Below, in pieces: positions 12,001 through 43,100 of a stretch of DNA of 64,000 nt (its first letter is position 1; each line of letters begins with the position of its first letter). Location of the stretch: IMG/VR virus record IMGVR_UViG_3300042892_002114, positions 1 through 64,000 of that record. One strand, 5' to 3'. Source of the stretch: a virus. Both the position numbers and the translations under genes were made by a program. Under the pieces are notes generated by a model. That model ran no database searches and was not told where the DNA came from. It saw only the letters and a list, made by a program, of their open reading frames with translations.

Positions 12001-13605
12001 TTATACTTCGTCCAAGTTGCCGATGACGATTTTGCCAAAAAACTCTGGTCTCAAAATCTTCTTGGCGTAGCGTGTCATTACGCCACGACGTGGAGTAAAG
12101 TTCACTGGATCATACACCAACGGTGTTTGAATCAGTGGGATATATGGAGCGTAAACAGCGCCGGTTTCTAGGAAGTTTGTTCCACGGAAACCTACCAACA
12201 TAACATTGTCTGTCATGTATGGGTTCTTGTATACTGTCCAACGGTTGCTTAGAGCGCCAACTTTGGCAACGCCCATTGCGAACTTGGCTTGGTCGCCGTC
12301 CGTGTTGGTGCTGAAGCCTGGGATGGATTCAATGATTGTAGCTACGTCTGGGGAGCAAACTAGGAAGTTTGCACCGCCACGCAGTGTCAATTGGTGAATC
12401 TTATTCGAGACCTTTTGGATCTTGTTGCCCAGTGTTTGGAACCATGTGCTCTTGACATATGCAGTGCGGTTAGCAGCTGTGTCTTGGAATCTTCCAACGG
12501 AAGCATTGTATTCACTACCAACGCGAGCTGACCAGTATTCAGTTGTAGCATCTGGAGCAGCTGTGACCAACATGTCCAAGATTTCCAAATCAATTTCCAT
12601 CGAAACGTATTCAGATAGAAGAGCGGTTAGCTCGGCTTCTGCGTCGATAGAGTGATATGCATTCAAGTCTTGAGCCAATTCTGGTGTCCAGACGGCTTTC
12701 AACTTACGGGTCTTGGCAACAATGGCTTCCGACTTCAACTCTAGGTTGACTTCTGGAATACCGATGTCGTTTGGTGTACCGGTGGTATTTGGCAATCCGG
12801 TTCCTTTGTCTTCGAAGTCGCCACGAGATGTTGGCTCTGGTTGATTGTGGTACGAAACGCCGAAGCTGTTTGCACCAGCTGCAATCGACGCAGATGTTAC
12901 GAAGGTTACGGTAGAACCGGATGTGGTTGTGAATCCTGGGTAGAAATCAACAATGCCAGAACCGCTGATGGTGAAGGCACGAACACCGGTGGTGTCAAAG
13001 CCTGTACCAGCTAGGTCAACTGTGACTTTGATGATTTGACCGTCTGCGACAGACGCTGAAAGTTCTGGAACGAACTTTGCATCCAGCCAAGAACCTGTGG
13101 CCAAAGAACCTGTTAGGCTGACGGCGGTGTCATTGATGGTGTAACCGAAACGACCTTGGCCATATAGACCATTGACGGCGGAATCAGTTGAACCATTCTT
13201 TGTGCCCGTACCACCGAACAACGATTGACCGTTGAAGGCTGGTTTACCGGCTTGGTTGGAACCATACTTGAAGTCCAGATAGAATACCAGACCGGAAGGA
13301 AGATTCATCGGTTGAACCGAGACGAATTCCTTGGCAGCGATTTCAGCGAAAACGCGGCGAACTAGTGGGAGAGCAACGCCAGCCCATTGTTCGGAATTAG
13401 CGGAGGTACCTGTGCGGGTAGCTTCGTCAATTAGTTGCTTTGCTTGATTTTCCAAAAGGATGGACATGTGCGACTTTTCGATGTCGCTTTTCATGCCTTC
13501 TAGAAGACCTGTTTTTTCCCATTTGGTCATTAGACCGCGTGTTTGAGACATTAGTTGAACCATTGGGTTCGATGTCTCGCTTAGTAGTGATTTGATGTCT
13601 GACAT
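12001..13605 (-). CDS. gp23: Major capsid protein, T4 gp23-like
   Basis: LPLVRRVF, VQPMNLPSGLVFY, AKTRKLKAVWTPELAQDL.AYH.IDAEAEL, YAPYIPL, P.RGVMTRY. Confidence 0.97.
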   Translation of the reverse strand: MSDIKSLLSETSNPMVQLMSQTRGLMTKWEKTGLLEGMKSDIEKSHMSILLENQAKQLIDEATRTGTSANSEQWAGVALPLVRRVFAEIAAKEFVSVQPMNLPSGLVFYLDFKYGSNQAGKPAFNGQSLFGGTGTKNGSTDSAVNGLYGQGRFGYTINDTAVSLTGSLATGSWLDAKFVPELSASVADGQIIKVTVDLAGTGFDTTGVRAFTISGSGIVDFYPGFTTTSGSTVTFVTSASIAAGANSFGVSYHNQPEPTSRGDFEDKGTGLPNTTGTPNDIGIPEVNLELKSEAIVAKTRKLKAVWTPELAQDLNAYHSIDAEAELTALLSEYVSMEIDLEILDMLVTAAPDATTEYWSARVGSEYNASVGRFQDTAANRTAYVKSTWFQTLGNKIQKVSNKIHQLTLRGGANFLVCSPDVATIIESIPGFSTNTDGDQAKFAMGVAKVGALSNRWTVYKNPYMTDNVMLVGFRGTNFLETGAVYAPYIPLIQTPLVYDPVNFTPRRGVMTRYAKKILRPEFFGKIVIGNLDEV

Positions 13606-13646
13606 AATAATTTCCTATATTTAGATGTTGATTGTTTTATACTTAC

Positions 13647-15080
13647 TTACTTACTGCGAATACCGGCCAATTTCTTAAAGCGGTTTGCCATTTCGGCTCC
13701 TTCTGTAAGAACAGCGGCTTTTGTCGGTCTGGTCGATGCAACTGGCTTGGAGGCGAGTCCTTCGGTGATGGATCTAACAGTTTGAGAAACAACCTTTTTA
13801 GTGGCTGGTGCTGCAACAACTGTCTTCTTTCCACCGAAATTAAATGATTCGGCCAACGTAGCGTAAACAAGCTTGGCTTCACGAACCGATTTCGTGAGGT
13901 CAAATGACTCGATTACTTTTAGTTTTTGCTCATTGTTTAGGCTGGCTTGTTTGAACAACTTGTTCGTGTACAACAGCTTGGCATTGAGCAGGTTAACTTC
14001 ATTGATGCGGTCCCGTAGATAAACGACTGCGCTACGGTATTCTGCTAGTTCCTTCTTCAACGAAATGTTTTCTTTGACGGTTTCTTTTTTCTCGTCTTCT
14101 TCGTCCTCAGATTCTTCATCTTCGGATTTTTCCGATTTACCAGCTTTTTTGGCTTGGTAAGCGGCTAGACCGGCTGGAAGTTTTCCTTCTTCGACGTTCT
14201 TTTCGTCGTCAGCGTCTTCGTCGTCCGTTTCGGAAAGAAGTTCATCAAGATTGATTTCTTCTTCTAGTCCTGTTTCGGAGGCTTCTGGAGCGTGGGCTTC
14301 TTCAGCTCCCATGCCGCCCATTTCATCCATTCCACCAACGTCATTCAGACCGTCTTCCAATTCTTTTAGGATTTCATCCAAAGAAGTTTCATCAACTTCT
14401 TCGTTTTCCTTCAAGGCTGCGGTATCATTGTCATATCCACCCTTGGATACTTCATTTCCTTGACCTTGTGGGTCATTGGTCTTGTGACCATTTGTGGTCT
14501 TGGTATAGTCAGAAGAAGCCTTGGCTGTTTTCTTGGCGGCTGATAAAGAACCCTTGGTTCCTCCGATTGCGGTTCCGACCGACTTCACCATCTTTTTACC
14601 CGGATCTTCTGTATTGTGACCCTTGGTGGTCTTCTTGTAATCACCAGAAGCCTTGTCGCCCTCGGCTATATAGTTGGTGTCGTCAAGTTCACCTTCTAGT
14701 TCATCTAGACCAGCTTCGTCACCAACGGGTGTGGATGACATCTCAGCGGATGGTTCTTCAACTGGGGCGTCCATAGCTGCATCTTGTGCGGCATCGGCGT
14801 GACCTTCTGGTGAGCCACCTGCTGCCATAGCTGCATCTTGTGCGGCATCAGCATGAACTTCACCACCACCCATATCGTCCATTGGCAATGGAGCTTCTGG
14901 TGCTGGAGCTGCGTCTGGTGAGATTTCTTCATCACCTGCAACTTCGGCACGTAGCTTTTCAGACAACATGCTTTGTAGTTTTGGAGCAAAGTGCTCTTCG
15001 AGAGCAGCTTTTGCGTTTGATAGAGCAGTGGCGCGAACGGCTTTAGCGTCTGCGATTGCTTGTTTTAATAGATCTGACAT
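13647..15080 (-). CDS. Prohead scaffold/core protein (gp22 analogue)
   Basis: Acidic, low-complexity middle and coiled-coil C-terminus; many (L/I)xE sites; directly upstream of the capsid gene. Confidence 0.75.
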   Translation of the reverse strand: MSDLLKQAIADAKAVRATALSNAKAALEEHFAPKLQSMLSEKLRAEVAGDEEISPDAAPAPEAPLPMDDMGGGEVHADAAQDAAMAAGGSPEGHADAAQDAAMDAPVEEPSAEMSSTPVGDEAGLDELEGELDDTNYIAEGDKASGDYKKTTKGHNTEDPGKKMVKSVGTAIGGTKGSLSAAKKTAKASSDYTKTTNGHKTNDPQGQGNEVSKGGYDNDTAALKENEEVDETSLDEILKELEDGLNDVGGMDEMGGMGAEEAHAPEASETGLEEEINLDELLSETDDEDADDEKNVEEGKLPAGLAAYQAKKAGKSEKSEDEESEDEEDEKKETVKENISLKKELAEYRSAVVYLRDRINEVNLLNAKLLYTNKLFKQASLNNEQKLKVIESFDLTKSVREAKLVYATLAESFNFGGKKTVVAAPATKKVVSQTVRSITEGLASKPVASTRPTKAAVLTEGAEMANRFKKLAGIRSK

Positions 15081-15219: not shown

Positions 15220-15669
15220 TTACTTTTTCGCAATTTTGCTGATTGCTGGACCAGTACCTTCGTTCAAATCTTTGATTTCAAAATAACGACCCAATACATG
15301 TCCACCATCTTCATACAATGCTTCCATGCGTTGTTGAACTGTGTGTGCTTCTTTAGCAAGTTTGTTGAATTCTTCACTAACACGACGCAAATCTTTCATG
15401 TTGCGCGATACAGTGTTTTTATCAAACCAATCTTCACCAGTTTCACTGAGAGTAAATTTTTCAGCAGCTTCTGTAATCTTGCTTAATGTATGAGCAATTT
15501 CCATTAAATTACCTTCTGGTGGACGACGTAAAAGATTTCCATACTCATTATAACGACCAATTGCATCCAGAGCGGATTTCTTTTCTTCATTGGTCCATTC
15601 TTTTTGTTGATCATTATTGGTAGGTTGGTCAATACCTTCAATCAGAGGTCTTAGTTTAAGTATTTTCAT
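15220..15669 (-). CDS. Hypothetical head-cluster protein
   Basis: 149-aa helical ORF; N-terminus MKILKLRPLIE. Confidence 0.7.
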   Translation of the reverse strand: MKILKLRPLIEGIDQPTNNDQQKEWTNEEKKSALDAIGRYNEYGNLLRRPPEGNLMEIAHTLSKITEAAEKFTLSETGEDWFDKNTVSRNMKDLRRVSEEFNKLAKEAHTVQQRMEALYEDGGHVLGRYFEIKDLNEGTGPAISKIAKK

Positions 15670-17626: not shown

Positions 17627-18253
17627 TTAACGGGTTTCTGAAAGAATATCACGAATGATATTTTCAATTTTTAGATATTTATTGATGTCTTTGCGATCTT
17701 GATTGCCGCCAATCAATTGTTTTTCACGATTGATGCCTTCGGCAAGATTCATATAAGCACCGCGTGTGCTTGGTGAAGATACAAGGTCAAAACACAATAG
17801 TTCAAAGTCATCTTGTACTTCAACAGTATTTTCATTCACATTGCGAACACTTCCCAAACCGCGACTACTAATACCAATACGAATATTGTTTCTAATCAAA
17901 TCTCTTGCAATATTACCACTTGGTGTAGTTAAAATTTCAATTGTACCAACCACAGTATCACCTTCCCAGTGACATTCTGTGACATTGTGGCATACATTCT
18001 TTAGATTGATGATACTGGATTCCGGATGATCAAGTTCACCCAGAGCGCGACGTTCTTTGATGATTTGTTGATATTTTTCAACTTCACGCTCTAATACTTC
18101 GCGTGGATATACACGACCATTATGATTCTTTTCACCGGCTTTTTGTAATGGACCTTTTAGAACCAATGGACCACCAGTATTTGCTTTTGCTTCTGTAAGC
18201 ATCTGCGGAGTGATATCAAATGGTATAAAATCTACTAATAGTTGTTTGCTCAT
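17627..18253 (-). CDS. gp21: Prohead core protease, T4 gp21-like
   Basis: KNHNGRVYP, ALGELDHP, GISSRGLGS, FDLVSSPST. Start placed at MSKQLL. Confidence 0.93.
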   Translation of the reverse strand: MSKQLLVDFIPFDITPQMLTEAKANTGGPLVLKGPLQKAGEKNHNGRVYPREVLEREVEKYQQIIKERRALGELDHPESSIINLKNVCHNVTECHWEGDTVVGTIEILTTPSGNIARDLIRNNIRIGISSRGLGSVRNVNENTVEVQDDFELLCFDLVSSPSTRGAYMNLAEGINREKQLIGGNQDRKDINKYLKIENIIRDILSETR

Positions 18254-18254
18254 A

Positions 18255-18797
18255 TTATTTACTTTGTATAATGTTTCGTTTAGAAGCAATACCCATAGTT
18301 TGTGGATATTGAATACCACCAACTTGACCACGAGTCAAACTTGCTGGAGCTTGTGATTTTGCTTGAGGAGCATCATTTACTTGTATCTGTGAATCATCCA
18401 GATAATATTCATTTTCTGATTCATTGCCTTCTTTGCCAGTAAATACAATATAATATTTGTCTTTCATATAACGAACTTCAATGTTATTGACCGCGAGGCT
18501 ATATTCTTTTTCAATTTGGCCAACACTACCTTTGGATGCTTTTACAATTACATTCTTTTTTAGAAATGATTTCTTTAGTTCATCGGCCAGTTTTTTTACA
18601 GCAGCATCTTCTTGTTTTTCCAATTCTGTCTTGAAGTTTTTGAACATATTAGAAATATCAATCATTTTGGCATTTGGTGTAGCAGGAGGCGTGACTGCAT
18701 TTGGCGCACGGCCCGGTGACATAGCACCCGCAGCAGATGGATTGTTGCCCCATGTGTCTTCTTTCAAAATCTTTTTAGCAATGTCTGTTAGATTCAT
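18255..18797 (-). CDS. Hypothetical head-cluster protein
   Basis: Likely start MNLTDIAKKILKE (ATG 18797), just after the previous gene's stop. Confidence 0.65.
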   Translation of the reverse strand: MNLTDIAKKILKEDTWGNNPSAAGAMSPGRAPNAVTPPATPNAKMIDISNMFKNFKTELEKQEDAAVKKLADELKKSFLKKNVIVKASKGSVGQIEKEYSLAVNNIEVRYMKDKYYIVFTGKEGNESENEYYLDDSQIQVNDAPQAKSQAPASLTRGQVGGIQYPQTMGIASKRNIIQSK

Positions 18798-18802
18798 AAA
18801 TT

Positions 18803-19294
18803 TTATTTTTTTCCCATTCTGTTGATTCTTTTGGCAATTTCTTTCAATCGACCATGAATTTCTTTCATGTCTGGTTGAGTACGTGCCCACAAACTTTCTG
18901 TTTTTACATTTGTTTCGGTTTTTAGTCTCTCACAGATGTTTAGTAGATATTCAACTTCACCAAGCATCTTCTTTGCTTGATTGATGCCATATGAAATTTT
19001 GGCATGATTTTTCATCATATCACTATCTTTAAAATTACGATAGCGGCTGCGACCTTCCATAATACCAATATCACGACGTAGTGTTAGTGTTTCACCTTCA
19101 CCAACTGTTGTATCATCTGTGTCTTCTTTGCCTACAACTTTGCCACCTGGCATACTACGTTCTGCTGATTTCTTTTTGCTTTTATGGCCACGAAATGCTG
19201 CTGGTGTTTGATAACCAGCAACAGCACCCGTTGCTGTCATTTCTTCAATGACTTCTTCAACAAGCTCGCGAAGTATTTCTTTGGTGTCTTTCAT
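18803..19294 (-). CDS. Hypothetical head-cluster protein
   Basis: 163 aa; VIEEMTATGAVAGYQTPAAF; tightly packed in the operon. Confidence 0.7.
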   Translation of the reverse strand: MKDTKEILRELVEEVIEEMTATGAVAGYQTPAAFRGHKSKKKSAERSMPGGKVVGKEDTDDTTVGEGETLTLRRDIGIMEGRSRYRNFKDSDMMKNHAKISYGINQAKKMLGEVEYLLNICERLKTETNVKTESLWARTQPDMKEIHGRLKEIAKRINRMGKK

Positions 19295-20526: not shown

Positions 20527-23500
20527 TTAGAGTGGTTTATCATCATCAATTAGATTAGACTCATCCATAATGGATTTTTCTTCGGTTATTATTTTCTTAT
20601 TTTTATTATTATACTTGTCCATCAATGACTTTTTTATACTTTTAAGATCTTCGTCCATGCTACCCAATGGGGAACCTCTGTATATATGAGTCGTTCTGCG
20701 GTCTGACTTGGACTTTTCTTTATTTTGTCCGTTGCCAAGAATATCTTCTCCGCGTGTTTTTGTGAATGTATCGCTATATTCTTCTTTTTTGCCGTCTTGA
20801 CTTGGACGAATGCCGCGCTCTCTTTCTTTGCGAGTTTCTTCATCAAGAACTGGCTCATTTGCGTTCTTTTCTTCTTCCAACGGTGGCAAACCACCGGCTT
20901 CACCACCACCACCAGCGTCTTCGCCACCGCCACCAAGGTCTGGTAGACCGCCAGCATCTCCACCACCGCCACCCATGTCTCCACCACCACCACCACCGGA
21001 TTCACCACCAGCTTCACCACCACCGGTGGTCAGAGCGGGATCACTGCCTTCGTCGGTAATTTGTTGAATTCTCCAACCTTCTTTTTTGTCTTTTATGACT
21101 TCTTGTTGCAGATCTTCAACATCATCGCCGGACATATTGAATATATTATTATATAGCCACTTCTTGCTAAACATATTGCTCTCCATCATATCGGCAGCAA
21201 GATTTACTTTATTCTGCCAAATTTCCAACTTTTCTTGTTCAAAGATGGTAGAAGGATTGCTCAATTCCAACTCAAAATCAACCAACGACGCATCTTGATA
21301 TCCTTGTACATACAAATGAACAATAGCAATCTTGGTCAGTTCAGAAACAAGAATACGTTGAATACGACCAATGGTACGAGCAAAACGAACATCTTCTGCT
21401 GCCAATGTAGCCTTGCCAGAAATACTTTCATCATAACCCAAGAATGCTTTTGGAATCTTGAGTGCTGCCATCATTTTATTACGAACATATTCCAAGTCAT
21501 CAATACCAGTAAATTCCATACCAGGTAATGTATCAATCTTTGTGCCACTGTCTCCACCACGAACTGGTAGATAAAAATCTTCAACCATATTATTCAAGTT
21601 GAAACGAAGGTTATAATCACCAGTCTTTTCATCAATATATGGCACTTTTTTAACTTGAGTGATAATCTTTTGCATGGCGGCATCAACTTCACTTGGTGCA
21701 ATATTACCAACATCAATAGAGAAAATACGCTTTTCCGGAGCCTTCATGATACGATGGATCAACATGGCATCTTCCATAAGGCTCAATTGCTTCCATACAC
21801 GACGTGCTGGTTCAATCATGCTCTTGCCATATGGTAAGAAATTGCTATCACTCAACAATCTAAAATGAGCAATTTCAAAGTTTTCATATTCCATACCACC
21901 ACCCATACCATCATGCTGATATTTGACATAGTTAAGATTTTTTGGATCACTACCTTCAACACGAGTCAATTCATATGGACTGATTGGATGCACCAAGTGA
22001 ATGCCATATTCTGGTGATATTTCCAATCTCAAGAAAAAATCACCATATTTACAATTCTTTACAAATACTCCACTGTTTGGCATGATTGAACCATTGGCAT
22101 CTCTTCCACATACTGCAAAATTATGCCTATCATCTTCTCCATTTGGACCAACCACGGTCATGCAATATACGTCGGCGGTTTCATTAACAACTTCAATCCG
22201 AGCAACTTTGTGATTGGACACCACAAATGAATCCATATTTTCTTTTTGAATTCTTCGAAATTCTCTGTTATTAAGAGAAGACCACTCGGAAATAAATTTT
22301 GGATTATTTTTTAAAGATTGATATGCCGCTTGCATGGAGATTGGAGAACCCCCATTAAACTTTACTTCATTGTATATATCCAACATTTTACTTGACCATT
22401 TTACTTTCATTCGAAACTTTGCCATATCAGACCGAACTGGATCTTTCCACATTTCTGTTTTATTCTTTGCCCTGACACTATTGTGAGATTGATGAAGGTC
22501 GGAAGAATTGTATTTAATAAAATCCAGTACCGGTTTTCCTTTCATTTCTTTACTCAATCGCTCGCGTCTAGAACTTGAACGAAGATACTTGTCTATACCC
22601 ATCAAACGTTTTTTTGTCACTTCCGGTGAGTGTAGAATTTTTTTACAATGGTCCGCGTGCAATTGGCGATGTGCAAAGAATTCCATTGGTTCTAAATTTG
22701 GCGGAGTATTGTCGTATTTGTTAAAATTCTTGTGGTGCAAAATTCTATTTTCCTTGTCAGTTTCTATTCCAGACGATTTAGCCACCAACCGATGTGTGTA
22801 GTCATATTTATCGGTTTCTGGATTATATATCATCTCATACTCGTTCATTCCTCCTTTTTTTGGACTCAACTTGCGATAAAATGGCATCAAACTGTCATTT
22901 TCTAACAACTCATCTGCTCTCTTGGTAGTTCCGTTGCGAAGTATGAATGGATGTTCTGGCGCGGTTTCTATTACCGAGCCATCATCAAGTGTCACTTTTA
23001 CAATTTTGTTTGATGTATAATTTTTGTTACACCACACAACTTTACCAGGAACAATCTTTTTAGTATCATCTTGTACAGAATAAACCCAAATTTCCTCACC
23101 GGCGTTTAATCGGTTTGATAGCGACTCTATAGTAATAATCTCACCCGATAGGATTGGAATTGGGGAATCGTATTTGACTGGCATGTTTCTGGTCCAACTC
23201 CACATATTGAACTCAACATTTAAAATATCATAAAACAAATTGTTGAGAATTTTTTTGATGTTTTCATTCTTTGAGCGAATTGTAAGAACATTTCCAAATT
23301 CTGAAGGAACAAGGCACTCATCTGAGTAAATATCCAATGCAGATGCAATGATTGGGTCCATGTCCATTACATCATAATCTCTAAACAATTCTAAACGACT
23401 TGCTTGATATGCCATAGACATATCGCGATTATGCAAGTTGTATGTACTGCTTCTTAATCTATTGAAACGATCACGCAAACTATTTCTGTCTGTTGCGTAT

Positions 23501-23613
23501 TGAATTTCATCTGTGTCTATAACTTTTATCTTTTTTCCGCCAACATGACGCACGAGCACGTCCGTTGAGAACATCTTCTTTAGTCTTGTGAATATATCTT
23601 TTTGTTCTGCCAT
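20527..23613 (-). CDS. gp20: Portal protein (T4 gp20-like) interrupted by an intein
   Basis: LMEDAMLIHRIMKAPEKRIF.IDVGN, EDFYLPVRGG.SGTKIDTLPG, ALKIPK, RFARTI.RIQ. Confidence 0.95.
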   Translation of the reverse strand: MAEQKDIFTRLKKMFSTDVLVRHVGGKKIKVIDTDEIQYATDRNSLRDRFNRLRSSTYNLHNRDMSMAYQASRLELFRDYDVMDMDPIIASALDIYSDECLVPSEFGNVLTIRSKNENIKKILNNLFYDILNVEFNMWSWTRNMPVKYDSPIPILSGEIITIESLSNRLNAGEEIWVYSVQDDTKKIVPGKVVWCNKNYTSNKIVKVTLDDGSVIETAPEHPFILRNGTTKRADELLENDSLMPFYRKLSPKKGGMNEYEMIYNPETDKYDYTHRLVAKSSGIETDKENRILHHKNFNKYDNTPPNLEPMEFFAHRQLHADHCKKILHSPEVTKKRLMGIDKYLRSSSRRERLSKEMKGKPVLDFIKYNSSDLHQSHNSVRAKNKTEMWKDPVRSDMAKFRMKVKWSSKMLDIYNEVKFNGGSPISMQAAYQSLKNNPKFISEWSSLNNREFRRIQKENMDSFVVSNHKVARIEVVNETADVYCMTVVGPNGEDDRHNFAVCGRDANGSIMPNSGVFVKNCKYGDFFLRLEISPEYGIHLVHPISPYELTRVEGSDPKNLNYVKYQHDGMGGGMEYENFEIAHFRLLSDSNFLPYGKSMIEPARRVWKQLSLMEDAMLIHRIMKAPEKRIFSIDVGNIAPSEVDAAMQKIITQVKKVPYIDEKTGDYNLRFNLNNMVEDFYLPVRGGDSGTKIDTLPGMEFTGIDDLEYVRNKMMAALKIPKAFLGYDESISGKATLAAEDVRFARTIGRIQRILVSELTKIAIVHLYVQGYQDASLVDFELELSNPSTIFEQEKLEIWQNKVNLAADMMESNMFSKKWLYNNIFNMSGDDVEDLQQEVIKDKKEGWRIQQITDEGSDPALTTGGGEAGGESGGGGGGDMGGGGGDAGGLPDLGGGGEDAGGGGEAGGLPPLEEEKNANEPVLDEETRKERERGIRPSQDGKKEEYSDTFTKTRGEDILGNGQNKEKSKSDRRTTHIYRGSPLGSMDEDLKSIKKSLMDKYNNKNKKIITEEKSIMDESNLIDDDKPL
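22054..23181 (-). mobile_element. Intein (376 aa) with HNH endonuclease, inserted in the portal
   Basis: Removing it restores WSWTRNM|CKYGDFF. Block B TAPEHPF, block F VYCMTV...HNFAV, terminal Asn before Cys+1; HNH motif HRLVA...HHKNFNKYDN.P.NL. Confidence 0.9.
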
Positions 23614-23680: not shown

Positions 23681-25336
23681 TCACAGCAGCCATGTTAGGT
23701 CTTCTGTTTTGCTTTGACCAGCCACACCACTTGGACCACCAATGCTCATTTTCCAAGGATTGCTGTAAACTCCATAAGGATTATTACCAGATTTATGCAA
23801 TGCCACCATATTATTTTTTATCTGCTCACTTGAAGTGGAACCTATCTTTGATATTATAAGACGAGTAGATTCATCTGCTTCTTTTCTCAATCGCAATGCT
23901 ACATCTCTTATCCACAATCCAATAGCCATTGACAATACGAGGTCATCATTATAACCAGTCATGGCTTCTGCTTTTGCAGATGATCCACCGGTGTTTTTCC
24001 ATATGAATACATTCAGTTCTTCCAACAATCGCTTGCTGTGTATGATTACTTCTTTATTGCGAATATAACTTTCAAGCTTAGATATTAGAAGCGGTCTGGA
24101 CTTATTGGATGTGGTAAAGCCCGGTGTCATTTTGCGTTCTTCGGCATTTATCTTGTTTGTGGATTGAGATTCTACATCCACATATTGTAGGTCCGATGAA
24201 CTATAAAATAGATTTGGATAGTTGCTGTCTAATACAACTTGTATAACTGCCCATCCTACGTTGGCATTTTCTATAACAAGCAATGCTTGATTATATTCAG
24301 TTGCAATCGTCATAAGCAATCGAGCATAATCACTTGTGGGTATTTTTCCTTTATATTCTGCCACTTGTTCCATTGTTTCTATTTCCAAAACTTGACATGC
24401 ACTAAAGTCGGCGGCGTCTCCTCGACCAACGTCGGCACTTATCATATAACTCTTACCAGCTTCTGGATATTTGTATATCCACAATCCTTTGTCATGTCCT
24501 CGCTTTTCTGTTGGATCAATCGCGTGATTTTTTTCATACCATTCTAGTAGTGGAATATCAATAACGGTATTACCTGATGTGCTAAATTCACAATCACATT
24601 CTTGTGCCGCACCTTTTTCGCCGGACAACTTTGTTTGATCATCGCGCCATTTTTGATCGCGTTCTGGATGATGATTCCACGGTAAGCTAATGCGATTCAT
24701 GTTGTTTAGACCAGATTCACTTTCTGTCCACATTTTGTGAAACCAATTACCCACACCATTCGGTGTAGACAACACAACCGCTTTACCACCAGTAGCCAAT
24801 GTGTATTGTGAAGACAACCAGATTTCGTCGATATTGTCGATGAACGCAGCTTCGTCAATGATCAGCAAAGATGCGGCACCTGAACGACCGGCTGTACCCG
24901 CTGATGAAATAGCAACAATCTTGGAGCCGTTGGATAGTTTCAATGACAGTCGATTGTCTTCTGATTCTCGCAGTTTCAACCAACTTGGTAGATTGTCATT
25001 GGCAAAACGAACTTTGGTTACAATTGCTTTGGATGTTTCTTGAGTGATACTCAAACAAATAATTTCTTTGTTTTCATGAAACACCATGAGCCACAATGAA
25101 TATCCAGCAACTAGTGTAGTAATACCCATCTGACGACTCTTGAGAATAATATTTTGGTCATACTTTATCAAGTCGGCCAAAGTTTTGTCTTGAAATGGAT
25201 AAGTAAGAAATGGCAGTGTGCCGCGAATAGGATGTTGAATCTTCACATACTTCTTCATGAAGTATATTGGGTCTTTGGCACACTTTATATACTCTTCCCG
25301 AATTACATCTCTAATATTTTTTGTCGTATTAGACAT
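23681..25336 (-). CDS. gp17: Terminase large subunit (gp17-like)
   Basis: KSRQMGITT (Walker A), LLIIDEAAF (Walker B), STPNG, ISADVGRG and DDLVLS nuclease motifs. Confidence 0.95.
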   Translation of the reverse strand: MSNTTKNIRDVIREEYIKCAKDPIYFMKKYVKIQHPIRGTLPFLTYPFQDKTLADLIKYDQNIILKSRQMGITTLVAGYSLWLMVFHENKEIICLSITQETSKAIVTKVRFANDNLPSWLKLRESEDNRLSLKLSNGSKIVAISSAGTAGRSGAASLLIIDEAAFIDNIDEIWLSSQYTLATGGKAVVLSTPNGVGNWFHKMWTESESGLNNMNRISLPWNHHPERDQKWRDDQTKLSGEKGAAQECDCEFSTSGNTVIDIPLLEWYEKNHAIDPTEKRGHDKGLWIYKYPEAGKSYMISADVGRGDAADFSACQVLEIETMEQVAEYKGKIPTSDYARLLMTIATEYNQALLVIENANVGWAVIQVVLDSNYPNLFYSSSDLQYVDVESQSTNKINAEERKMTPGFTTSNKSRPLLISKLESYIRNKEVIIHSKRLLEELNVFIWKNTGGSSAKAEAMTGYNDDLVLSMAIGLWIRDVALRLRKEADESTRLIISKIGSTSSEQIKNNMVALHKSGNNPYGVYSNPWKMSIGGPSGVAGQSKTEDLTWLL

Positions 25337-25712
25337 AATTGTGAGGTTCGTATTTGGTATATAACGGATGTGTATAATTTGCCATTACAATGTCTGGTAT
25401 TTCATCATACACATATTTTCTAAATTGTGAAGCCGATGCATCAATAATCACACCCTCCACTTCCACCCAATCATGGTCTATGGTATATTCATCATTTACT
25501 TCATCTAATGGACTAATAAATTGATATGCCGCTGGTTCGTCCAACGTGAAATTACCTTCAATATGTTTGGCATTTATTCCACGACTTTTTAGTTCTTTGA
25601 CCAAATCTTTCGCGATAAACTCGCACATACCTTTTTCTGGGTATTTGTTCTTTACTCTGATTGCCAATCCTTCGATTATATCAGACTGGTGCAAGAACTG
25701 AGTCAATTTCAT
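25329..25712 (-). CDS. Hypothetical protein with transglutaminase/papain-like C...HxW...D pattern
   Basis: GMCEFIA...HDWVEVEGVIIDAS. Confidence 0.55.
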   Translation of the reverse strand: MKLTQFLHQSDIIEGLAIRVKNKYPEKGMCEFIAKDLVKELKSRGINAKHIEGNFTLDEPAAYQFISPLDEVNDEYTIDHDWVEVEGVIIDASASQFRKYVYDEIPDIVMANYTHPLYTKYEPHNYV

Positions 25713-26325: not shown

Positions 26326-26363
26326 ATAAATGTTCGCTTCATTTATTCTTTGCGAACATTTAT
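26326..26363. repeat. Perfect 12-bp inverted repeat at the end of the nucleotidyltransferase gene
   Basis: ATAAATGTTCGC-N14-GCGAACATTTAT. Confidence 0.7.
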
Positions 26364-29300
26364 TATATGGATATTCCTAAAATCGTTTTGGCTGCTTTTT
26401 GTATTGGAGCATATTCTGCTGATTCCAACCCCGCTTGAGTCAAACCTTCCTTGGCTCTTTCCAGTGCTTTGACTTGAACATCTTTTGGTAGAGTCTTCAT
26501 GAGTGTCAGCAATCCAACATAACTTCTGAAGTTTTCAACATCTTGACCACTTGGCTTGCGTTTAAAAATAAGCTCAAATACTTTATTTACGCTGTTGATA
26601 CGATCTTCTGGTTTGCTTTCGCTGGCAGCAATGTCGGTATAAACATCCACCTTTTTACCTTGATAGTCCATATTCTTAGCCACAAGGCGATATGCCTTGC
26701 GCACACCGGCATGACCAGAACCGCTTGTATTGAGAGTATATTCTGCTGGTAGAGCATGTGTAGCATTGACTGATACAACACTCTTGCCTTTGGCATCAAC
26801 CAAACTCTTCAACTGACCAGATTGTATCTTGAGTGCAGTTGAGTTGGTGACATACACCGCATTTGGCAGTGCGGTTGCTGCTCGTGTCAGACCGCGTAAT
26901 AAAATAGCTCCTGCTAATCCTTTGATGCCAGTCGTCAAATCTTGCCATGGAGAATCTTTAATAAACTTGTTCCACTCAGATGGCTTTTCATAGCCTTGAG
27001 GGTCCAATGTCATTTCATCTCCTTCAAAGTCGATTTGAACAACCTGTTTTACCGGAGAATAATACCACAATGTGACTGTTTGACCTGCCAAAGCACGTTG
27101 ATTTTTTGTACGACCAACATAATGAAAATTTTTACTAACTTTATTTTTTGGTGTTGCTTTCCATTCAACTTGCTTGTCATCAATACTGTCCAAATATGCT
27201 TCCATTGTGTCCAATTTTTCTTTTGGCACAATCACATCAATATCTCCAAAAGCAGATTTGTATTTAGCCAAATCTTTATATTTTGCATCGCCGCTCATTA
27301 GATATTGAGAACTGCCGTTGAACACAAACCCATTTTCAATATATGGATTGTTCTTTTTCCAAAAACCTACCTTACTATTCAGTGCATATATAAGTTCCTT
27401 CACATCACCAGATACAGCAGAACGAATGTCTTTGCCTTGTGGATCAACAATCCTGAGTTTTGTGGTGGCTTGGGCTGGTTGACCATTTACGGTCTTTGAC
27501 GTTTTGTCATCTACAGCAGCAACAGATTGACCAGACTCGGTCAATGATGCAATTGCTTCTCTGATTAGTTGCTTGGCTAGTTCTATACCAAGATTTGCGT
27601 CGTGTTTTATTTTTTCAATATTTTTCATAGCTTCTGGTGTTTCTGCTTTTTCTAATTTTTTTGCAGTGCTGGCCGATTTCATATTTTTTATGAATGTATC
27701 CAGCACATATTTTACAAATTCTTCTCTGGATTTAAATGTTGTTCCATTCTTTGATACAACAACTCCTTTATCAAATGCTCTGTTATTATCAAGTGCTTTA
27801 CTCAAAGCAACCACGGTTTCGCATTTTTTCTTTAATGATGGATCGTTTGCATCCAATCCATAATAACCTTGTAATACTGATGAATTTACTTTTGAAACAC
27901 CAGCAAGATTGCCATAGAACTTCAATATATCCAAAAATACTTGATTTGGATTAAAGAACACAGGCTTTGAGTTTGTTTTGATCAGAGATGACGCAACCTT
28001 GCCATCTATCGTATTTATATATGGATTGGTGTTTGATCCCAACACAACATTAAGAGCATCGGATAATGCACTCAATAGATTTCCAGTAACAAATCCTTTT
28101 AGTCCTTTTTCCGGAGTTGTTCTAATTTTTGTCCATTCCGATGATACTTTATATGACAAAACCAAATCAACTTGAATTTTTTCACCACCAACGTTGAATA
28201 TTAAATATCCTGTACCAAAGTCTTTATCTTGAAAGTTTGGATATATATAACTTGGTTTTTTTTCTTGAATAAACTGGATAATCTTTTCTGAATACTTTTT
28301 ATTAGATGCTAGTTGTGATGTTCTATCATTAGTTTCTTCTGGTAATATAATTTGAATATCTATATCACCATATTCTACACCATCTTTTTCTAAATCTTGT
28401 TTATAATACATTGCTGAACCTACCGGTCCATTGGATTCTATTGGAGGAAGATTTGAATATGCATTGAATTCTGAAACAAATTTATCCATTGCACTCAAAA
28501 TATTTAACACTTTCTTTGGAGTTATAATAGTTGATTGTGTAGAAGTAGATCTCCAACCGCCTTCACCAAACATTTCTTTTTCTATTTCATTTACAACTTC
28601 CTCAGCAAAGTTTATATATGGATTAACTTCTGATACCGGCTCTGGCTTGTTTGCTATGAGAGTATTCCAAATTTCTTCTTTGTCTTTGTTGCCGACCGGT
28701 GGAAGATTTTTCAAGAATGATTCTTTATCATTGTTCATCAAAAATTCACGCATTTTTGTGCCACTTACATTCACTGTAGCAGTTCTTTCTACACCAATTT
28801 TTTTAATTTTATTAGCAGCCAACAACTCTGGATACTTTTTTAAATCTTCATCTTTGAAGTTTATTTCAACATCATCTTTGTCAGAATACAAATTTATGGT
28901 TGGCATATCTGCGGCATCTTGAGTCAATCTTTGTTCCAACCACGCAAGTTCATGCATAATGGCCCGAACTGGAGAATCAACAAACTTTACTTTTACATTC
29001 TTTGGCAAAGATGGAATAAACACATCACTCCATAGTTTTACAAAGTCATCTCCCTTTATAGGAAACTCACCCTTCTTTATTCTATCGGAAGATGATGTAT
29101 AAACAATGACTCGATCATTTTCATTGGCTGCTTTTTCAATAAGCTTCCAGTGACCAATGTGCAGTGGCTTGCCAGCAATTGGAATAAGACCAAGAGTTTT
29201 GTTGGTTGATCCCAACAACCCTTGTTTGGATGTCATCAAACGAATCGTATCATGAATATCATCTTTGATTTGAACAATGTTCTTTTTGTTGCCAGCAATC

Positions 29301-30283
29301 TGTTGTAGAGCATCAAAGAACTTCTTTAACTTTGGTTGATTCTTAGCAACATAAAAATTTGAATCTGAAATAACATCTTCTTCGGATTTTCCTTCAGTAC
29401 CAATTGCGGCAAAAATATTTTGTATCAATGCTCTGATTTGTTGAAAGTATGCTGAAGCGGCTTCTGGTTCAAGTTTATATGCGTCCTTCTTTGCACCACG
29501 AACTCCAGCATCATATTGATCGGCTTGCACCAACTTGAAGAACTCTCCATTATCAAGCTTCATTACCACACCTTCTGTTGTGCCACCCAATGTAGATGGA
29601 ACAGCCAAAATAGCCTCCGAAAATTTTGTTACAACATCAGTCGGATTGGTCCAATCAACATTTGTTAGTTTTGATCCAAACAACGGATTCTTCAGCAGAT
29701 TTTCCTTGCTGAGTTTTCCCTGAAAGAAGATAGGAAATGATGATATTTCCAACAAGTCTGCCATCTTGTTCACAGATTTGTAGTCTGTTATTTCTTGTTT
29801 CGGAATGGTATGCAAATCTCCGCCAACCACACGATACTGCACTTCACCATAACTTCTTAAAAACAAGCCACCCTTGTTGACATATGTACGAGTCAAAGTG
29901 TCTTTGTTTTGAGCAAACTCAACGCTAAACTCAGTACTCTTTGGAATGCTGTTAATCTTATTGTTTATCTTAGACAAATGATCAAATATCATGGAATATT
30001 GACCAATGCCAACAGAAGATTGGGATATATCACCCTTTTCTTTATCATTCAAATGAGCAAACTCTTTGGCATACAACACAGTTCCTTTGTATGCCACAAC
30101 CCAATTCTTGGTATAATCTGCTTTATCAACTTGCTGTGTACGCACCAATGTCAGTTTTGTTCCATCCACCTTTTCGGTGATGACCATGTTCTGACTTAGT
30201 ATTTCATTGGCTCTTTTTAGACGCAGTGACTCTGTTTTTGGTTCAAAAATATACTTTTTTAGGTTTTTTATAGAAATGTCCAT
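26363..30283 (-). CDS. Four-domain nucleotidyltransferase: RNA-ligase-like + HIGH (cytidylyltransferase-like) + two Pol-beta-type domains
   Basis: ITEKVDGT...EF...EGVVMK...FKL; GKPLHIGH...SGTKMR; VGS...GDIDI...QVDL; NGS...GDIDV...QIDF. Confidence 0.8.
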   Translation of the reverse strand: MDISIKNLKKYIFEPKTESLRLKRANEILSQNMVITEKVDGTKLTLVRTQQVDKADYTKNWVVAYKGTVLYAKEFAHLNDKEKGDISQSSVGIGQYSMIFDHLSKINNKINSIPKSTEFSVEFAQNKDTLTRTYVNKGGLFLRSYGEVQYRVVGGDLHTIPKQEITDYKSVNKMADLLEISSFPIFFQGKLSKENLLKNPLFGSKLTNVDWTNPTDVVTKFSEAILAVPSTLGGTTEGVVMKLDNGEFFKLVQADQYDAGVRGAKKDAYKLEPEAASAYFQQIRALIQNIFAAIGTEGKSEEDVISDSNFYVAKNQPKLKKFFDALQQIAGNKKNIVQIKDDIHDTIRLMTSKQGLLGSTNKTLGLIPIAGKPLHIGHWKLIEKAANENDRVIVYTSSSDRIKKGEFPIKGDDFVKLWSDVFIPSLPKNVKVKFVDSPVRAIMHELAWLEQRLTQDAADMPTINLYSDKDDVEINFKDEDLKKYPELLAANKIKKIGVERTATVNVSGTKMREFLMNNDKESFLKNLPPVGNKDKEEIWNTLIANKPEPVSEVNPYINFAEEVVNEIEKEMFGEGGWRSTSTQSTIITPKKVLNILSAMDKFVSEFNAYSNLPPIESNGPVGSAMYYKQDLEKDGVEYGDIDIQIILPEETNDRTSQLASNKKYSEKIIQFIQEKKPSYIYPNFQDKDFGTGYLIFNVGGEKIQVDLVLSYKVSSEWTKIRTTPEKGLKGFVTGNLLSALSDALNVVLGSNTNPYINTIDGKVASSLIKTNSKPVFFNPNQVFLDILKFYGNLAGVSKVNSSVLQGYYGLDANDPSLKKKCETVVALSKALDNNRAFDKGVVVSKNGTTFKSREEFVKYVLDTFIKNMKSASTAKKLEKAETPEAMKNIEKIKHDANLGIELAKQLIREAIASLTESGQSVAAVDDKTSKTVNGQPAQATTKLRIVDPQGKDIRSAVSGDVKELIYALNSKVGFWKKNNPYIENGFVFNGSSQYLMSGDAKYKDLAKYKSAFGDIDVIVPKEKLDTMEAYLDSIDDKQVEWKATPKNKVSKNFHYVGRTKNQRALAGQTVTLWYYSPVKQVVQIDFEGDEMTLDPQGYEKPSEWNKFIKDSPWQDLTTGIKGLAGAILLRGLTRAATALPNAVYVTNSTALKIQSGQLKSLVDAKGKSVVSVNATHALPAEYTLNTSGSGHAGVRKAYRLVAKNMDYQGKKVDVYTDIAASESKPEDRINSVNKVFELIFKRKPSGQDVENFRSYVGLLTLMKTLPKDVQVKALERAKEGLTQAGLESAEYAPIQKAAKTILGISI

Positions 30284-30309
30284 GCTTATAAGTATATATC
30301 ACCGGTTTA

Positions 30310-32445
30310 TTATATCAATTTTTTGACTTGTTTCAATACCATATCTGCTGATATTTCCTTGGAACATTCAAAGTTTTTGTTCCTTGGGCACCAAAACCAA
30401 TCATTGCGACTAAACTTGCAGGACATATCGTTCCAACAACCATTACAGACACTTTCATTGATTACTCTATATTCAGTATGAAACTCGCACAGACTCTTGG
30501 TAAATCCACTGATCAACACCACGGGCTTGCCCACGGCCCATGCCAACCAACTCAAACCAGAGCTTAGTCCAATAAAGAACTGTGCGCCTGCTATTTGAGC
30601 CATGCGTTCGTCCAGTGTAAAGTCGCCAGTTTTATCCACACAACCTTCTGGCATATAATTCATACTTTTGTCTACGCCAAAACTATTGTGTCGGTCAATG
30701 CACCATACTTCATATCCATTGCTCTTTAGATAATCCACCACGGTCTTCCATCCAGTTTTATTGTTCCAATACTTTGCTTGACAAGTACTTTGAGTAGCAA
30801 TACACACATATTTCTTCTTTACATTTTTATACTTATTGGCATCAAAAGTAATCTTTGGTTTGTATTCTATATTGGTCAAACCTAGTATGGTTGTGGCAAT
30901 TGAACATAGATTGAGCAACCTTGGGTCGGTTGGAATATGATTCTTGGTATTTTCTCCATCAAAACATCCAATCTTGTATTTAGCATAATATGGATCTGTA
31001 TACACATCCACTGCCAAAAATTTTATATTTGGATAATTCTTCTCAAACATTGGACGAAGTACTTTATTAAACACTGCACATTCCATTATACATTGATGTT
31101 TCTTCTGAAACTCATCAACAGCACCAATCCACGCCAACAAATCTCCTAAACTTTCACTGTCCAATACAACTTTAACTTTTTTATTTTTTGGATCAAATGT
31201 GTGTTTTTCTACCAATACATCATAACCATCTGATATGTCATATACCTCAACCACCCACTTGTTGAAATACTTTGTGGAAGTTGATGCCCACATATTATTT
31301 TTAAGTTTCGTTTCATATACAACATGACCTGTATGAAAATCAATAAACTTGATCTTATAACTCTTGTCAACTGGACCGGGTATATCTACCTTAGCACCAT
31401 CATCAAAAGTTATTTTAATTTTGTTTTCTGGTTTCTTTGGCTCTTTGTATACCACGTCTGTATTTTTATAACTATCAATCAACTGATTACCAAAAATACA
31501 TTCACAATATTCGCTGTATAGTTTGGCTAAGTCATGTACTCTGTTGCTGTACGAATTTTCTTTGGCATTTTCCAATGCGGCATTTCTATATGCTTTATAA
31601 TTTAATCTCACATCTTCAATACCATGAATTGCTTCAGATATGTCACGTGAAGTAACAACCATACCTTTGTATTTTTTTTCTTCAAACGTACCAACCACTG
31701 GCAACCCACATGCCATTGCTTCTAATAATGTGAGGTTTGGATGACCAGCCTCTAGTTCAGAGAAGTGTAAAAATATATCATGACTGTTATATAACTCAAT
31801 GAGCGACTTTTCATCCAAGTCATATAACTTGGTCAACTGTTCATAGTTGTTGAGTTCGGGATCGAGTGTTTTGAAGAAGTTATCGTTGTTACGCGGACCA
31901 GCAATTGTCAGCGGTAGTCCCAACTGTTTGGCTGCTTGAATTGCAATAGCAAACCCTTTACGGTCTTTGCTTTGGTCATTAGCATATCCATTGTTGGCTA
32001 CGCACAACAACTTTGGACTGCTGCTCATCTCTCTTGTTTTGTATGTAAAGACATCTGTATTGACGGCGTGAGAAAAGTAACGCAACTTTTTGCTGCCAAA
32101 ATATGGTATCAAAAACTTACATGGTGACAAAGAAAACACACTATTTTCAATTGCTTTAAAATTTTCTTTATACACATGCGATTCTTTGCCATACAAAAAT
32201 GCGTGATGATCATGAATGCTAAAGATGTATGGAACACCGCGTTCATGAAGCATATTGGCGAGATTGGCCACGTGTACATGCACAACCATACTTTCATCAT
32301 ATTTAACATCATTGAGATATTTTATCTCATTACGGATGTTCAGCTTGTTCAATTCAAGATGATAATCCCAGATAATTTTTTCGATTGCACCCCACCCATT
32401 TGGTGGAATTGATATAAGTCCCGGCGTAATATTGATTATTTTCAT
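30310..32445 (-). CDS. GT4-type glycosyltransferase fused to a TibC/Aah-type autotransporter heptosyltransferase
   Basis: N-terminal half: PPNGWGAIE, KG...AIQA, EAGHPNLTLLEAMACGLPVV. C-terminal half: LGDLLAW, CIATQSTCQAKYWNN, FIGLSSGLSWLAWA, CNGCW...WCPR...FEC. Confidence 0.85.
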   Translation of the reverse strand: MKIINITPGLISIPPNGWGAIEKIIWDYHLELNKLNIRNEIKYLNDVKYDESMVVHVHVANLANMLHERGVPYIFSIHDHHAFLYGKESHVYKENFKAIENSVFSLSPCKFLIPYFGSKKLRYFSHAVNTDVFTYKTREMSSSPKLLCVANNGYANDQSKDRKGFAIAIQAAKQLGLPLTIAGPRNNDNFFKTLDPELNNYEQLTKLYDLDEKSLIELYNSHDIFLHFSELEAGHPNLTLLEAMACGLPVVGTFEEKKYKGMVVTSRDISEAIHGIEDVRLNYKAYRNAALENAKENSYSNRVHDLAKLYSEYCECIFGNQLIDSYKNTDVVYKEPKKPENKIKITFDDGAKVDIPGPVDKSYKIKFIDFHTGHVVYETKLKNNMWASTSTKYFNKWVVEVYDISDGYDVLVEKHTFDPKNKKVKVVLDSESLGDLLAWIGAVDEFQKKHQCIMECAVFNKVLRPMFEKNYPNIKFLAVDVYTDPYYAKYKIGCFDGENTKNHIPTDPRLLNLCSIATTILGLTNIEYKPKITFDANKYKNVKKKYVCIATQSTCQAKYWNNKTGWKTVVDYLKSNGYEVWCIDRHNSFGVDKSMNYMPEGCVDKTGDFTLDERMAQIAGAQFFIGLSSGLSWLAWAVGKPVVLISGFTKSLCEFHTEYRVINESVCNGCWNDMSCKFSRNDWFWCPRNKNFECSKEISADMVLKQVKKLI

Positions 32446-40144: not shown

Positions 40145-43100
40145 TCAAACGTGATTTATATGTGAAAATCCATCAATCTTCCTGATTTCCAGTTGTTTGT
40201 CTACCATGTCTCGCATTGCGTCAATATGACTTATTATTATAATAAAATCAAAATGGGGCTTCAGATAATTAAATAACGAATGTAACATCGGAAAATTGGA
40301 TGCATCCAACGCAGATACCCCTTCGTCAACTACCAAAAAGTTGGAACGCGGTAGATTGCTGATGTTGATCAAGGATACTCTCAAAGCCAAAGCACTAACA
40401 AACTTTTCCATACCAGAGCATAGTTCCAATGGCCATTTTTTGTCATCATATTTGATATATACATTGACATTCTTGCCATCTGTTTCAATACTCATACTAA
40501 ACTCAACCATTTGAGATAATATATTATTTACTTCTTGTTCAATTCTTGGAATGGCATCTGAAATAATTTTATATGGTACGCCATCTTTACCAATTGAAGT
40601 TAGATAATATTGATAAGCAGCAAGCTCGTTTTCATACTCTTCTACTTTTTTGATTTGTTCTTCGATATTTTTTATTTGGTCTGTCAATGACACTTTGCGG
40701 CTATACGCATCCACATATTCTCGCTCAATATTCTTTAGTTTTGATGTTATAGTAGCAACATCATTTTTCAAATCGTAAACAGATGATTCAACCAGTTTGT
40801 TGCTTTCTACAATTTCTTTGGACTTTTCATACAACTCAACCAGATTGTCAATATCAACTATTCTATTAGAGTTTTTAGAAATTAAATTATTGAGATTGGA
40901 TTTTTCCAGTTCTTTCTTGGAAATGAATGCTGTGAGTGTATTGATAGTTTCTTTGAGCAGCACACTTTGTTCATATTGAGCCACAAATGGTTCAACTTCT
41001 ATAATCTGTGTTTTGATGGTTGATATGGCATCAAACAGTTCTCTTGCATCAGTTTTGTCGGATTCCAAACTATCTTTAGCAGATATAGCATCTTTTACAA
41101 ACGCATTATCACAGCAATATTCACAATTTGGATCATATTTGTGGTTGGATAGATGTTCTATTTTCTTGAGTTTTTCTTTGACCACGAGCTTAAATTTTTC
41201 CAATTCTTGCTCAAGACGAGTTTTTTGACGAACAAAACTTGCATGCTTGTCCGATTTTTCTTTTAGATCATCTGGAAATGCAGATAGTTTATTGGAAGCA
41301 TCCACATATTCTTTTTTCTTTGACTCTGTGTTTGTGTCAATAACCGAAATAGCATCAACAGATTGACTATTTTTTGTTTCTAAAGTTTCGCGCTCTTTTT
41401 TTAGAGCAAATACATTTGTTGGCACATTTTCAAGTTTTATAATCTTGGCTTGTTGTTCAACGATTTTATTATCAAGTTCATTCTTCTTTGATGAATATTG
41501 ATCGCGTTGACCAGTCAAATCAATAAGTTTGGACTCTGCCAATCCCAAATCATTTTTATTGGACTCAATCTTGACTTGATTGTTTTCTTTGTTGAATGAC
41601 TTGATGGCACCTGTTAGTTCTTTTAGTTTGTCATTGCCCTTGGCCACAAGTTTATCAAACACATTTAGACCAATGAACTGACACAACAAATCCTTGCGTT
41701 CAGTTTGACCCATTTCAACAAACGACCCTTGATTGCCTTGTAATGCAAGTGAAGTTAGTACAAAGTCATCATAATCGCCGATATAATCACGAATGATTTC
41801 ATTTGTGCTTCTGCGAGCTTCACTGTTGAGGCTAATCTTTTCGTCTTTCTCCATCTTATAGAAGTTTACATCAACTTTTACATTGCCTTTTTTATCTCTG
41901 ATGCCTTTGCGCTCAATGATATATTGAATATCATTTATCTCAAATGTGAACTTGCCATGAAAAGACATTTTTTGTGAGTTCATCACATGAGTTGCTTTGA
42001 ATGCTCTGGCACTTTTATCAAATGCTGTAAAGCATAATGCGTCCATCAATGATGATTTTCCGCTCGCATTATTTGCGAACAAACCATACACATCTTCCAG
42101 TTTAGTAAAGTCAATCACATTGTTTTCACCATAACTAAACATATTACTGAACTCAAACTTGATTGGCTTCCAACGAATGTTGCGTGAAGTGTCATCTTTG
42201 CTCAAATCAGCATTGAGGTCTTTGTTGATTTTATGAACAGACTCAAGTGTGCCATCGTCCATAATATCTGGATATTTAGCTTTGAGTGCTTCACTAATAA
42301 GTTTATTTTGATAATCAACATTGCCAATCTGACTCAAGTTGGCAGCAGCTTGAACACTTACAACTTTAGAAGCATCGTCGCCATCAACTCGCATATAAAT
42401 AATGTCGCTGATTTCATGCGTCTTTTTGATTTCATTTACTACCTTTTTTAGTTCAGTAGCAATAGTTTCTTTGCAACGCACACGAAGTTTTGGCTTCTTG
42501 GGCATTGTGCTTATATCAGTCATCAACTTGCCGTCATCAATATCAATAGTGAAATAACCATAATCATTTGGTATTTCTACATGCTTGTATGCTCTGTTCT
42601 TTATATCCCACAAACAAATGCCGTGACCAAGCAATGCTTCGCCATGATTTTGTTGAATAACCGAACCAGCATAACGAATGATTGGTTTTTCTGATACTGG
42701 ATCGCACATTTGCAGATTTTGTGCCAAATGAATATCACCCAACAATGCCATATCATGACCATCAAACATATCATTCATGATACTCTTGTTGGTTACGGTA
42801 TAACCCACATCAGTCTTGGCGTCAAATACACCACCATGAAATAAAGCAATCTTTGTATCAAACTCCGTCTTGATTTTCTTGGTCACATCTTTCATTTTTA
42901 TAAATGAAGTATGGTCGGTGAAAATAGACATGTTATTTATAAGAATATTAGCAAATGAATACAACTTGCTTTCTTTTAGATAATAAAGATTGTCATGAGC
43001 CAAATTTTCTACAATAGGAGTCAAACTATCCAATCTCGTTGTGTTTGTGAGAAGACAATCATGATTGCCCGCAATAACAATCGTAGGACGCAAATCAGAT

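Follow-up and report, generated by a model that had tools for sequence, protein, structure and literature searches.

A four-domain nucleotidyltransferase polyprotein beside the head genes of a T4-like jumbo phage: a candidate for protease-processed capsid cargo

Why does a phage combine four nucleotidyltransferase-like domains in a single protein and encode it beside its packaging genes? This question is raised by the polyprotein gene P0001 in the IMG/VR virus record IMGVR_UViG_3300042892_002114. The window analysed here comprises the first 64 kb (64,000 nucleotides) of this 91-kb contig, which is about 33% complete. Its source is a T4-like jumbo phage, the size class being concluded from a 297-kb contig, rated 100% complete, on which the gene has a copy with 97% identity. 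The gene is real, since 76 or more homologues with 41-97% identity were found. Our comparative sequence analysis suggests, with moderate confidence, that the encoded protein is a cargo polyprotein, which would be loaded into the capsid, cut by the head protease into three enzyme units and injected together with the DNA. Conserved junctions ending in glutamate, the breakpoints of naturally split homologues and the presence of homologues in purified virions are the observations that point in this direction.

Domains and junctions of the polyprotein

Four nucleotidyl-transfer domains from three superfamilies had been assigned to this protein by the original prediction. Each of the motifs listed there was found in its place, and the folds were confirmed by comparison of AlphaFold2 models with Foldseek and VIA-align. 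Modelling was done in two halves with alignments of 44-51 homologues and resulted in a predicted local distance difference test (pLDDT) of 88.9 and a predicted template modelling score (pTM) of 0.83 for amino acids (aa) 1-575, and in values of 88.3 and 0.53 for aa 576-1306. Apart from ligase motif V, each of the four domains has invariant catalytic residues. The first domain (D1) shows an adenylyltransferase fold that is nearer to RNA ligases than to DNA ligases. Its motif I, TEKVDG (aa 36-41, 30161-30178), contains E37, K38, D40 and G41, which are invariant in 44 sequences; motif IV, EGVVMK (aa 237-242), is also invariant and is followed by FKL (aa 249-251). In type, D1 corresponds to the nick-sealing Rnl2/Rnl5 ligases and not to the tRNA-repair Rnl1 ligases. 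It shares 12-16% identity with T4 Rnl2, Naegleria NgrRnl and kinetoplastid REL1, and differs from the nick-sealing RNA ligases by a motif V with the single lysine K250 (FFKLV, the second lysine being absent), by a divergent C-terminal region and by the fusion to a HIGH-motif domain. This second domain (D2) has the fold of a Rossmann-like nucleotidylyltransferase with the invariant motifs HIGH (aa 375-378, 29150-29161) and SGTKMR (aa 507-512). Its structural matches PPAT, NaMNAT and NMNAT lie within 1 Z unit of one another. In comparison to these enzymes the first motif of D2, GKPLHIGH, is atypical and lacks the usual Phe/Pro spacing.

The Pol-beta palm fold was found in the remaining two domains (D3 and D4), as predicted. 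Catalytic residues are G622-S623, D640, D642 and D706 in D3, with GDID at aa 639-642 (28358-28369), and G990-S991, D1014, D1016 and D1085 in D4, with GDID at aa 1013-1016 (27236-27247). In addition, QVD/SEW/GLKG of D3 is colinear with QID/SEW/GIKG of D4. The paralogy of both domains, already noticed in the original prediction, is weak within the protein (blastp E 0.023, hhalign E 0.015) and clear between the family profiles (hhalign E 5.3e-6, probability 86%, 169 columns). Regarding the type of enzyme the prediction has to be modified, as D3, and probably also D4, is more similar to minimal family-X polymerases, consisting of palm and thumb, than to CCA-adding, poly(A) or CD-NTase enzymes. D3 aligns with residues 142-335 of Pol beta and with the entire Pol X (174 aa) of African swine fever virus (ASFV), on which it superposes with palm and thumb only (165 aa, root-mean-square deviation 3.4, 18% identity). 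Fingers and 8-kDa domains of cellular family-X members were not found in D3 and D4, nor were extra N-terminal domains. D3 differs from the minimal family-X polymerases by additional helices at the C-terminus, by a longer spacer between GS and DxD and by the lack of a relationship at sequence level, so that the models speak for likeness and not for membership.

All Pfam and NCBIfam matches of the polyprotein are below the cut-offs. D1 reaches 21.2 bits against a gathering score of 27 for the Pfam family RNA_ligase (PF09414), a family for which some of its homologues have a precomputed match. For D2, curated cut-offs were missed with PF01467 (13.9 versus 21 bits), TIGR00125 (22 versus 27.7) and TIGR01526 (16.7 versus 341); D2 matches phrog_3462. 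D4 matches phrog_19290 (E 6e-24) and the D3 type has no PHROG family. A sequence relationship to family X was not detected either: the family profiles of D3 and D4 gave chance matches alone against PDB sequences (E above 0.5), and the polyprotein has no Pfam match to this family.

The junctions preceding D3 and D4 end in glutamate and are followed by GG and SG, in agreement with the prediction. They read FGE/GGWRS (E574) and LTE/SGQSV (E916), the slash marking the putative cut. The 23 full-length homologues all retain E574-G-G-W-R and E916-S-G, in linkers that are otherwise variable. Only eight conserved hydrophobic-x-E motifs exist in the protein, and those outside the folded cores are E574, E909 and E916. 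All three are located in low-pLDDT segments after helices, where linker 1 falls to a pLDDT of 56-60. E916 (L-T-E/S) and E909 (I-R-E/A) fit the pattern of (L/I)-x-Glu plus a small residue. Head proteases of T4-type and giant phages all cleave after Glu (PMC5694885), and the major capsid protein of this phage carries I-D-E/A at the cut position of T4 gp23.

Homologues occur in different modular forms, and their breakpoints fall at the two polyprotein junctions. Besides D1-D2-D3-D4 (about 1300 aa, 51-97% identity) we detected D1-D2-D4 (about 950-985 aa), D1-D2-D3 (about 910 aa), which ends at the residue aligned with E909, and a stand-alone D4 (about 405 aa) with a 17-20 aa leader before E/SG. 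The junctions were further surveyed in 126 distant representative sequences, taken from clusters at 50% identity or less. Modules starting with Met-Gly-Gly account for 29 of the 126. Glu is present at P1, the last position before the joint, in 91 of the 97 modules with upstream residues (94%), and L, I or V at P3 in 91 of these 97, whereas P2 is variable. The pattern is the same for short upstream leaders, most commonly of 9 aa, as for other domains in this place; starts with and without leader were both checked at the DNA level. Met-Gly-Gly starts and E/GG joints would therefore yield the same mature N-terminus, by removal of Met or by a cut after Glu. Stand-alone relatives either start directly with Met-Gly-Gly or carry 8-20 aa leaders that are very similar to MKTYQEFIAE of T4 IPII/IPIII (T4 record). 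For targeting to the T4 capsid the first 10 residues are enough, and processing is governed by residues 8 and 10 (PMC9026906). The resulting rule, L/I/V-x-E followed by GG or SG, provides direct predictions for mass spectrometry of virions.

Capsid delivery and competing explanations

Experimental data on virion presence, which support packaging indirectly, come from homologues in the T4-like Campylobacter phage IBB_35, in whose purified virions two relevant genes were identified by mass spectrometry (PMC3322345 supplement). Gene 1-56 (44.4 kDa, 17% coverage) is a D4 homologue with a full-length match to phrog_19290 and an 11-aa leader ending I-L-E/GGN. Gene 2-25 (39.7 kDa) is a homologue of D1 and was detected more weakly, with 2.9% coverage. 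In the window, three small open reading frames (ORFs) on the minus strand also begin with leader-like sequences: 15220-15669 (11 aa, ending LIE/G), 25329-25712 (14 aa, IIE/G) and 18255-18890 (13 aa, LKE/D, counted from an internal Met). By sequence, these are candidates for further capsid-targeted cargo.

We propose that the polyprotein would be made alongside the head and packaging genes and enter the prohead core, where the gp21-type protease could cut after E574 and E916, possibly also after E909. This would free three units, namely D1-D2, in which a nick-sealing-type RNA ligase would be rigidly joined to an NMNAT/PPAT-like adenylyltransferase, and D3 and D4 as two minimal polymerase-X-like nucleotidyltransferases. 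Packed in the capsid, the units would reach the cell together with the DNA. As shared substrates we infer nucleic-acid 3' ends and nicks, which D3 and D4 may extend or tail and D1 may seal, so that the incoming genome or host RNA would be protected or repaired under nuclease attack. Action on nucleic-acid ends and nicks is the reading that we favour, based on fold and association.

Several observations weigh against such a delivery. The polyprotein itself has no N-terminal leader, as it starts with MDISIK and is preceded by an in-frame stop, and therefore loading would have to rely on the leader-like helices inside the chain. Leaders of 20-35 aa ending I-F-E, L-F-E or L-S-E do occur in full-length relatives that are more distant. 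At the E574 junction P3 is occupied by Phe here (L, F, I or V in relatives), and GG or SG is conserved also where no cut is needed. Moreover, the T4 late box TATAAATA is not found upstream of the gene, and the 'late-type motif' of the original prediction turned out to be the octamer ATATATAC. The prediction of virion delivery is in line with the comparative data and with the mass spectrometry of homologues, whereas the N-terminal targeting leader is absent from this protein.

The missing leader also favours a cytoplasmic multi-enzyme that is neither packaged nor cut, in which hydrophobic-x-Glu-Gly-Gly would mark structural domain starts and the fusion would only co-localise the enzymes of one pathway. 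This would also agree with the fact that GG(W/N) is kept even in leaderless forms. However, the P1 Glu is missing exactly where a module starts at Met, and hence it is not needed for the fold. The similarity of the leaders to the T4 targeting sequence, the homologues in purified virions and the disorder of the junctions in the models likewise speak against an uncut cytoplasmic protein, which we consider unlikely.

About as doubtful is a function that the original prediction had offered for the delivered enzymes, a counter-defence kit: D2 would counter NADase defences by regenerating NAD+, and D1 with D3/D4 would repair cleaved tRNA through ligation and CCA-type end repair. The fold of D2 is closest to NaMNAT, NMNAT and NadM, its phrog_3462 match points the same way, and relatives joined to D3/D4-like modules have a classical GRFQPFHxGH motif of the NMNAT type. 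RNA ligases repair tRNA in T4. However, neither the phage's own record nor its complete close relative of 297 kb encodes NAMPT, the partner of NMNAT in phage NAD+ salvage, or a PNK3P-type phosphatase domain. This relative already has a separate T4 Rnl1-type RNA ligase (110806-111378, PF09511, E 1e-16), which weakens this proposal further. Because the complete relative lacks NAMPT, end repair or tailing of nucleic acids is favoured over NAD+ regeneration.

Finally, D3 and D4 might not act on nucleic acids at all, but nucleotidylate host proteins or, like CD-NTases and OAS, synthesise oligonucleotides that serve as signals or decoys. Foldseek matches to OAS2, cGLR and CdnE, amidoligase and GGACT domains as other fusion partners, and the predicted protein NMPylation by Pol-beta nucleotidyltransferases of polyvalent proteins (PMC5512222) would allow this, which we regard as quite improbable.

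Homologue family and relation to known systems

An exhaustive search with D3-D4 revealed 480 clusters at E 1e-3 or better. Hundreds of the proteins found are stand-alone, with a length of about 340 aa for the D3-like and about 400 aa for the D4-like forms. In ESM-Atlas, all of the nearest clusters are viral. As fusion partners of D3/D4-like modules we detected NMNAT-type HIGH domains, DUF6267, DUF6934, amidoligase and GGACT domains, and one relative of the D3 module in BFVD is embedded in a 1096-aa ParB/Srx protein. The NMNAT-type HIGH domains occur in different architectures, each time joined via the same E/GG joint; this repeated association argues for one pathway and not for random effectors. 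In the metagenomic proteins P0107 and P0147 (aa 1-390), DUF6267 is joined to a D3-like module via I-D-E/GGW. By eye, DUF6267 has ligase/capping-type motifs (KWDG, EGYV and a Lys-containing motif V). A comparison as ligase by hhalign gave P 0.003 over 41 columns, and there was neither a PDB match nor a second Pfam match, so that DUF6267 as a ligase domain is a lead.

The D1-D2 fusion is kept in Campylobacter phages (CPt10 gp026) and in Vibrio phages (Va1_166), the latter with a leaderless D4-like gene at a distance of 1.3 kb. A 'virion structural protein' beside the D1-D2 homologue of CPt10 was considered as a D4 homologue and rejected (BLASTP E 10). Among cultured phages, no match was obtained by megablast with the polyprotein gene or by tblastn with D3 and one stand-alone D3-like protein.

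Taken further, these data allow a more tentative proposal, for which we see some chance. The virus-only minimal PolX-like family (at least 480 clusters at 50% identity) might be capsid cargo as such, the protease-made Gly-Gly N-terminus may activate it, and together with ligase and adenylyltransferase it could form an injected kit for break repair and end tailing. Fill-in or ribo-tailing would be followed by sealing. The target would be the incoming genome or host RNA, within the first seconds after infection starts and ahead of phage gene expression. D3 resembles the PolX of ASFV and giant viruses, which act with a ligase in repair, in that it is encoded together with a ligase.

Among known systems, the nearest is the route by which T4 loads its internal proteins (IPI, IPII, IPIII) and Alt into the capsid, where gp21 processes them, and ejects them together with the DNA. 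In common are the T4-type head module with an S77 protease and cuts after (L/I)-x-Glu, besides the leaders of stand-alone relatives and the homologues in virions. Each of the T4 internal proteins is a small protein of its own with one leader at the N-terminus, whereas the polyprotein would contribute three enzyme units per chain with internal junction sites. T4 cargo consists of restriction inhibitors or an ADP-ribosyltransferase, in contrast to the ligase and nucleotidyltransferase enzymes found here. Apart from Alt, known cargo of T4-like capsids comprises mostly small non-enzymatic proteins. Judged by sequence comparison, an internally jointed, protease-processed enzyme cargo with a large uncharacterised PolX-like family would be new within the T4-type route.

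As a concept, the polyvalent protein (PMC5512222), defined by at least two unrelated effector domains, comes closest. With four catalytic domains the polyprotein corresponds to this definition, its delivery being a deduction. Both combine several unrelated catalytic domains in one polypeptide with predicted co-delivery with DNA and processing into units. Anchoring or processing domains of polyvalent proteins (MuF, zincin MPTase and similar) were not among the Pfam or PHROG matches of the polyprotein, and processing here would fall to the prohead protease. In the polyvalent survey, Pol-beta nucleotidyltransferases were described in proteins of conjugative elements only, belonging to a different minimal type and having no associated RNA ligases (PMC5512222).

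If our reading is true, the injection of an RNA ligase along with two polymerase-like enzymes would represent a new class of first-strike phage weaponry, and a function would be obtained for a very large uncharacterised viral protein family without Pfam model. It would also mean that the signal for targeting and cleavage known from T4 works as a module within a chain, loading several enzymes from one gene.

Gene neighbourhood and further observations

The position of the gene beside the terminase/head cluster, as originally described, was confirmed. It lies two small ORFs upstream of the large terminase gene (TerL), beyond which the portal gene and then the head genes follow (Table 1). Loci fetched from relatives with 42-46% identity all encode fused D1-D2-D4 and keep the placement upstream of small ORF, TerL and portal.

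Table 1. Coordinates of the polyprotein, its parts and selected neighbouring features in the window.
Feature	Position	Strand	Description
Polyprotein gene (P0001)	26363..30283	-	single uninterrupted ORF, 1306 codons + stop
D1	29213..30283	-	aa 1-357: RNA-ligase adenylyltransferase domain (aa 1-262) and helical C-terminal region
D2	28640..29212	-	aa 358-548: HIGH-signature adenylyltransferase-like domain
Linker 1	28562..28639	-	aa 549-574: variable helix ending (L/F/I)-x-E574; predicted cut E574/G575
D3	27536..28561	-	aa 575-916: Pol-beta-fold nucleotidyltransferase, family-X-like palm and thumb, helical C-terminal part
Candidate cut sites in D3			E909, E916
D4	26366..27535	-	aa 917-1306: paralogous Pol-beta-fold nucleotidyltransferase, begins SGQSV
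Octamer ATATATAC	30292..30299	-	8 nt before the polyprotein start codon; common to portal, 206-aa gene and other neighbours
TerL	23681-25336		
Portal ORF	20527-23613	-	1028 aa
T4 gp21-type prohead serine protease	17627..18331	-	Peptidase_S77 (PF03420), E 3e-25, above cut-off; phrog_207, E 1.5e-53
T4-type major capsid protein	12001-13605		

Two motifs are over-represented in the window, the T4 late promoter TATAAATA with 24 copies versus 6.4 expected and the octamer ATATATAC with 19 copies versus 3.4 expected. The latter is often located 8-20 nt ahead of gene starts on the minus strand, as for portal, 206-aa ORF and polyprotein. They are likely to represent two promoter classes. A Shine-Dalgarno sequence was seen in few genes of the window.

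Some of the surrounding genes show additional features. In the portal ORF, aa 177-333 give HNH-endonuclease-like matches and precede the portal domain (aa 582-852); here, an intein or an inserted homing-endonuclease domain may be present. Directly downstream of the major capsid gene, a 507-aa homing/HNH endonuclease is encoded (10354-11877, minus strand, phrog_3339, E 9e-98). The GC content is 0.47 across the capsid-gene region (12001-14000) in comparison to about 0.36 elsewhere. The upstream neighbour of the polyprotein gene (30310-32445, minus strand) encodes a 711-aa double glycosyltransferase with an N-terminal GT1 domain, followed by a TibC-type N-domain and a GT9 heptosyltransferase. A 1067-aa ORF (40145-43348, minus strand) combines a calcineurin-like phosphoesterase of the Mre11/SbcD type with an SMC_N head and looks like a fused gp47-gp46 (SbcD-SbcC) nuclease.

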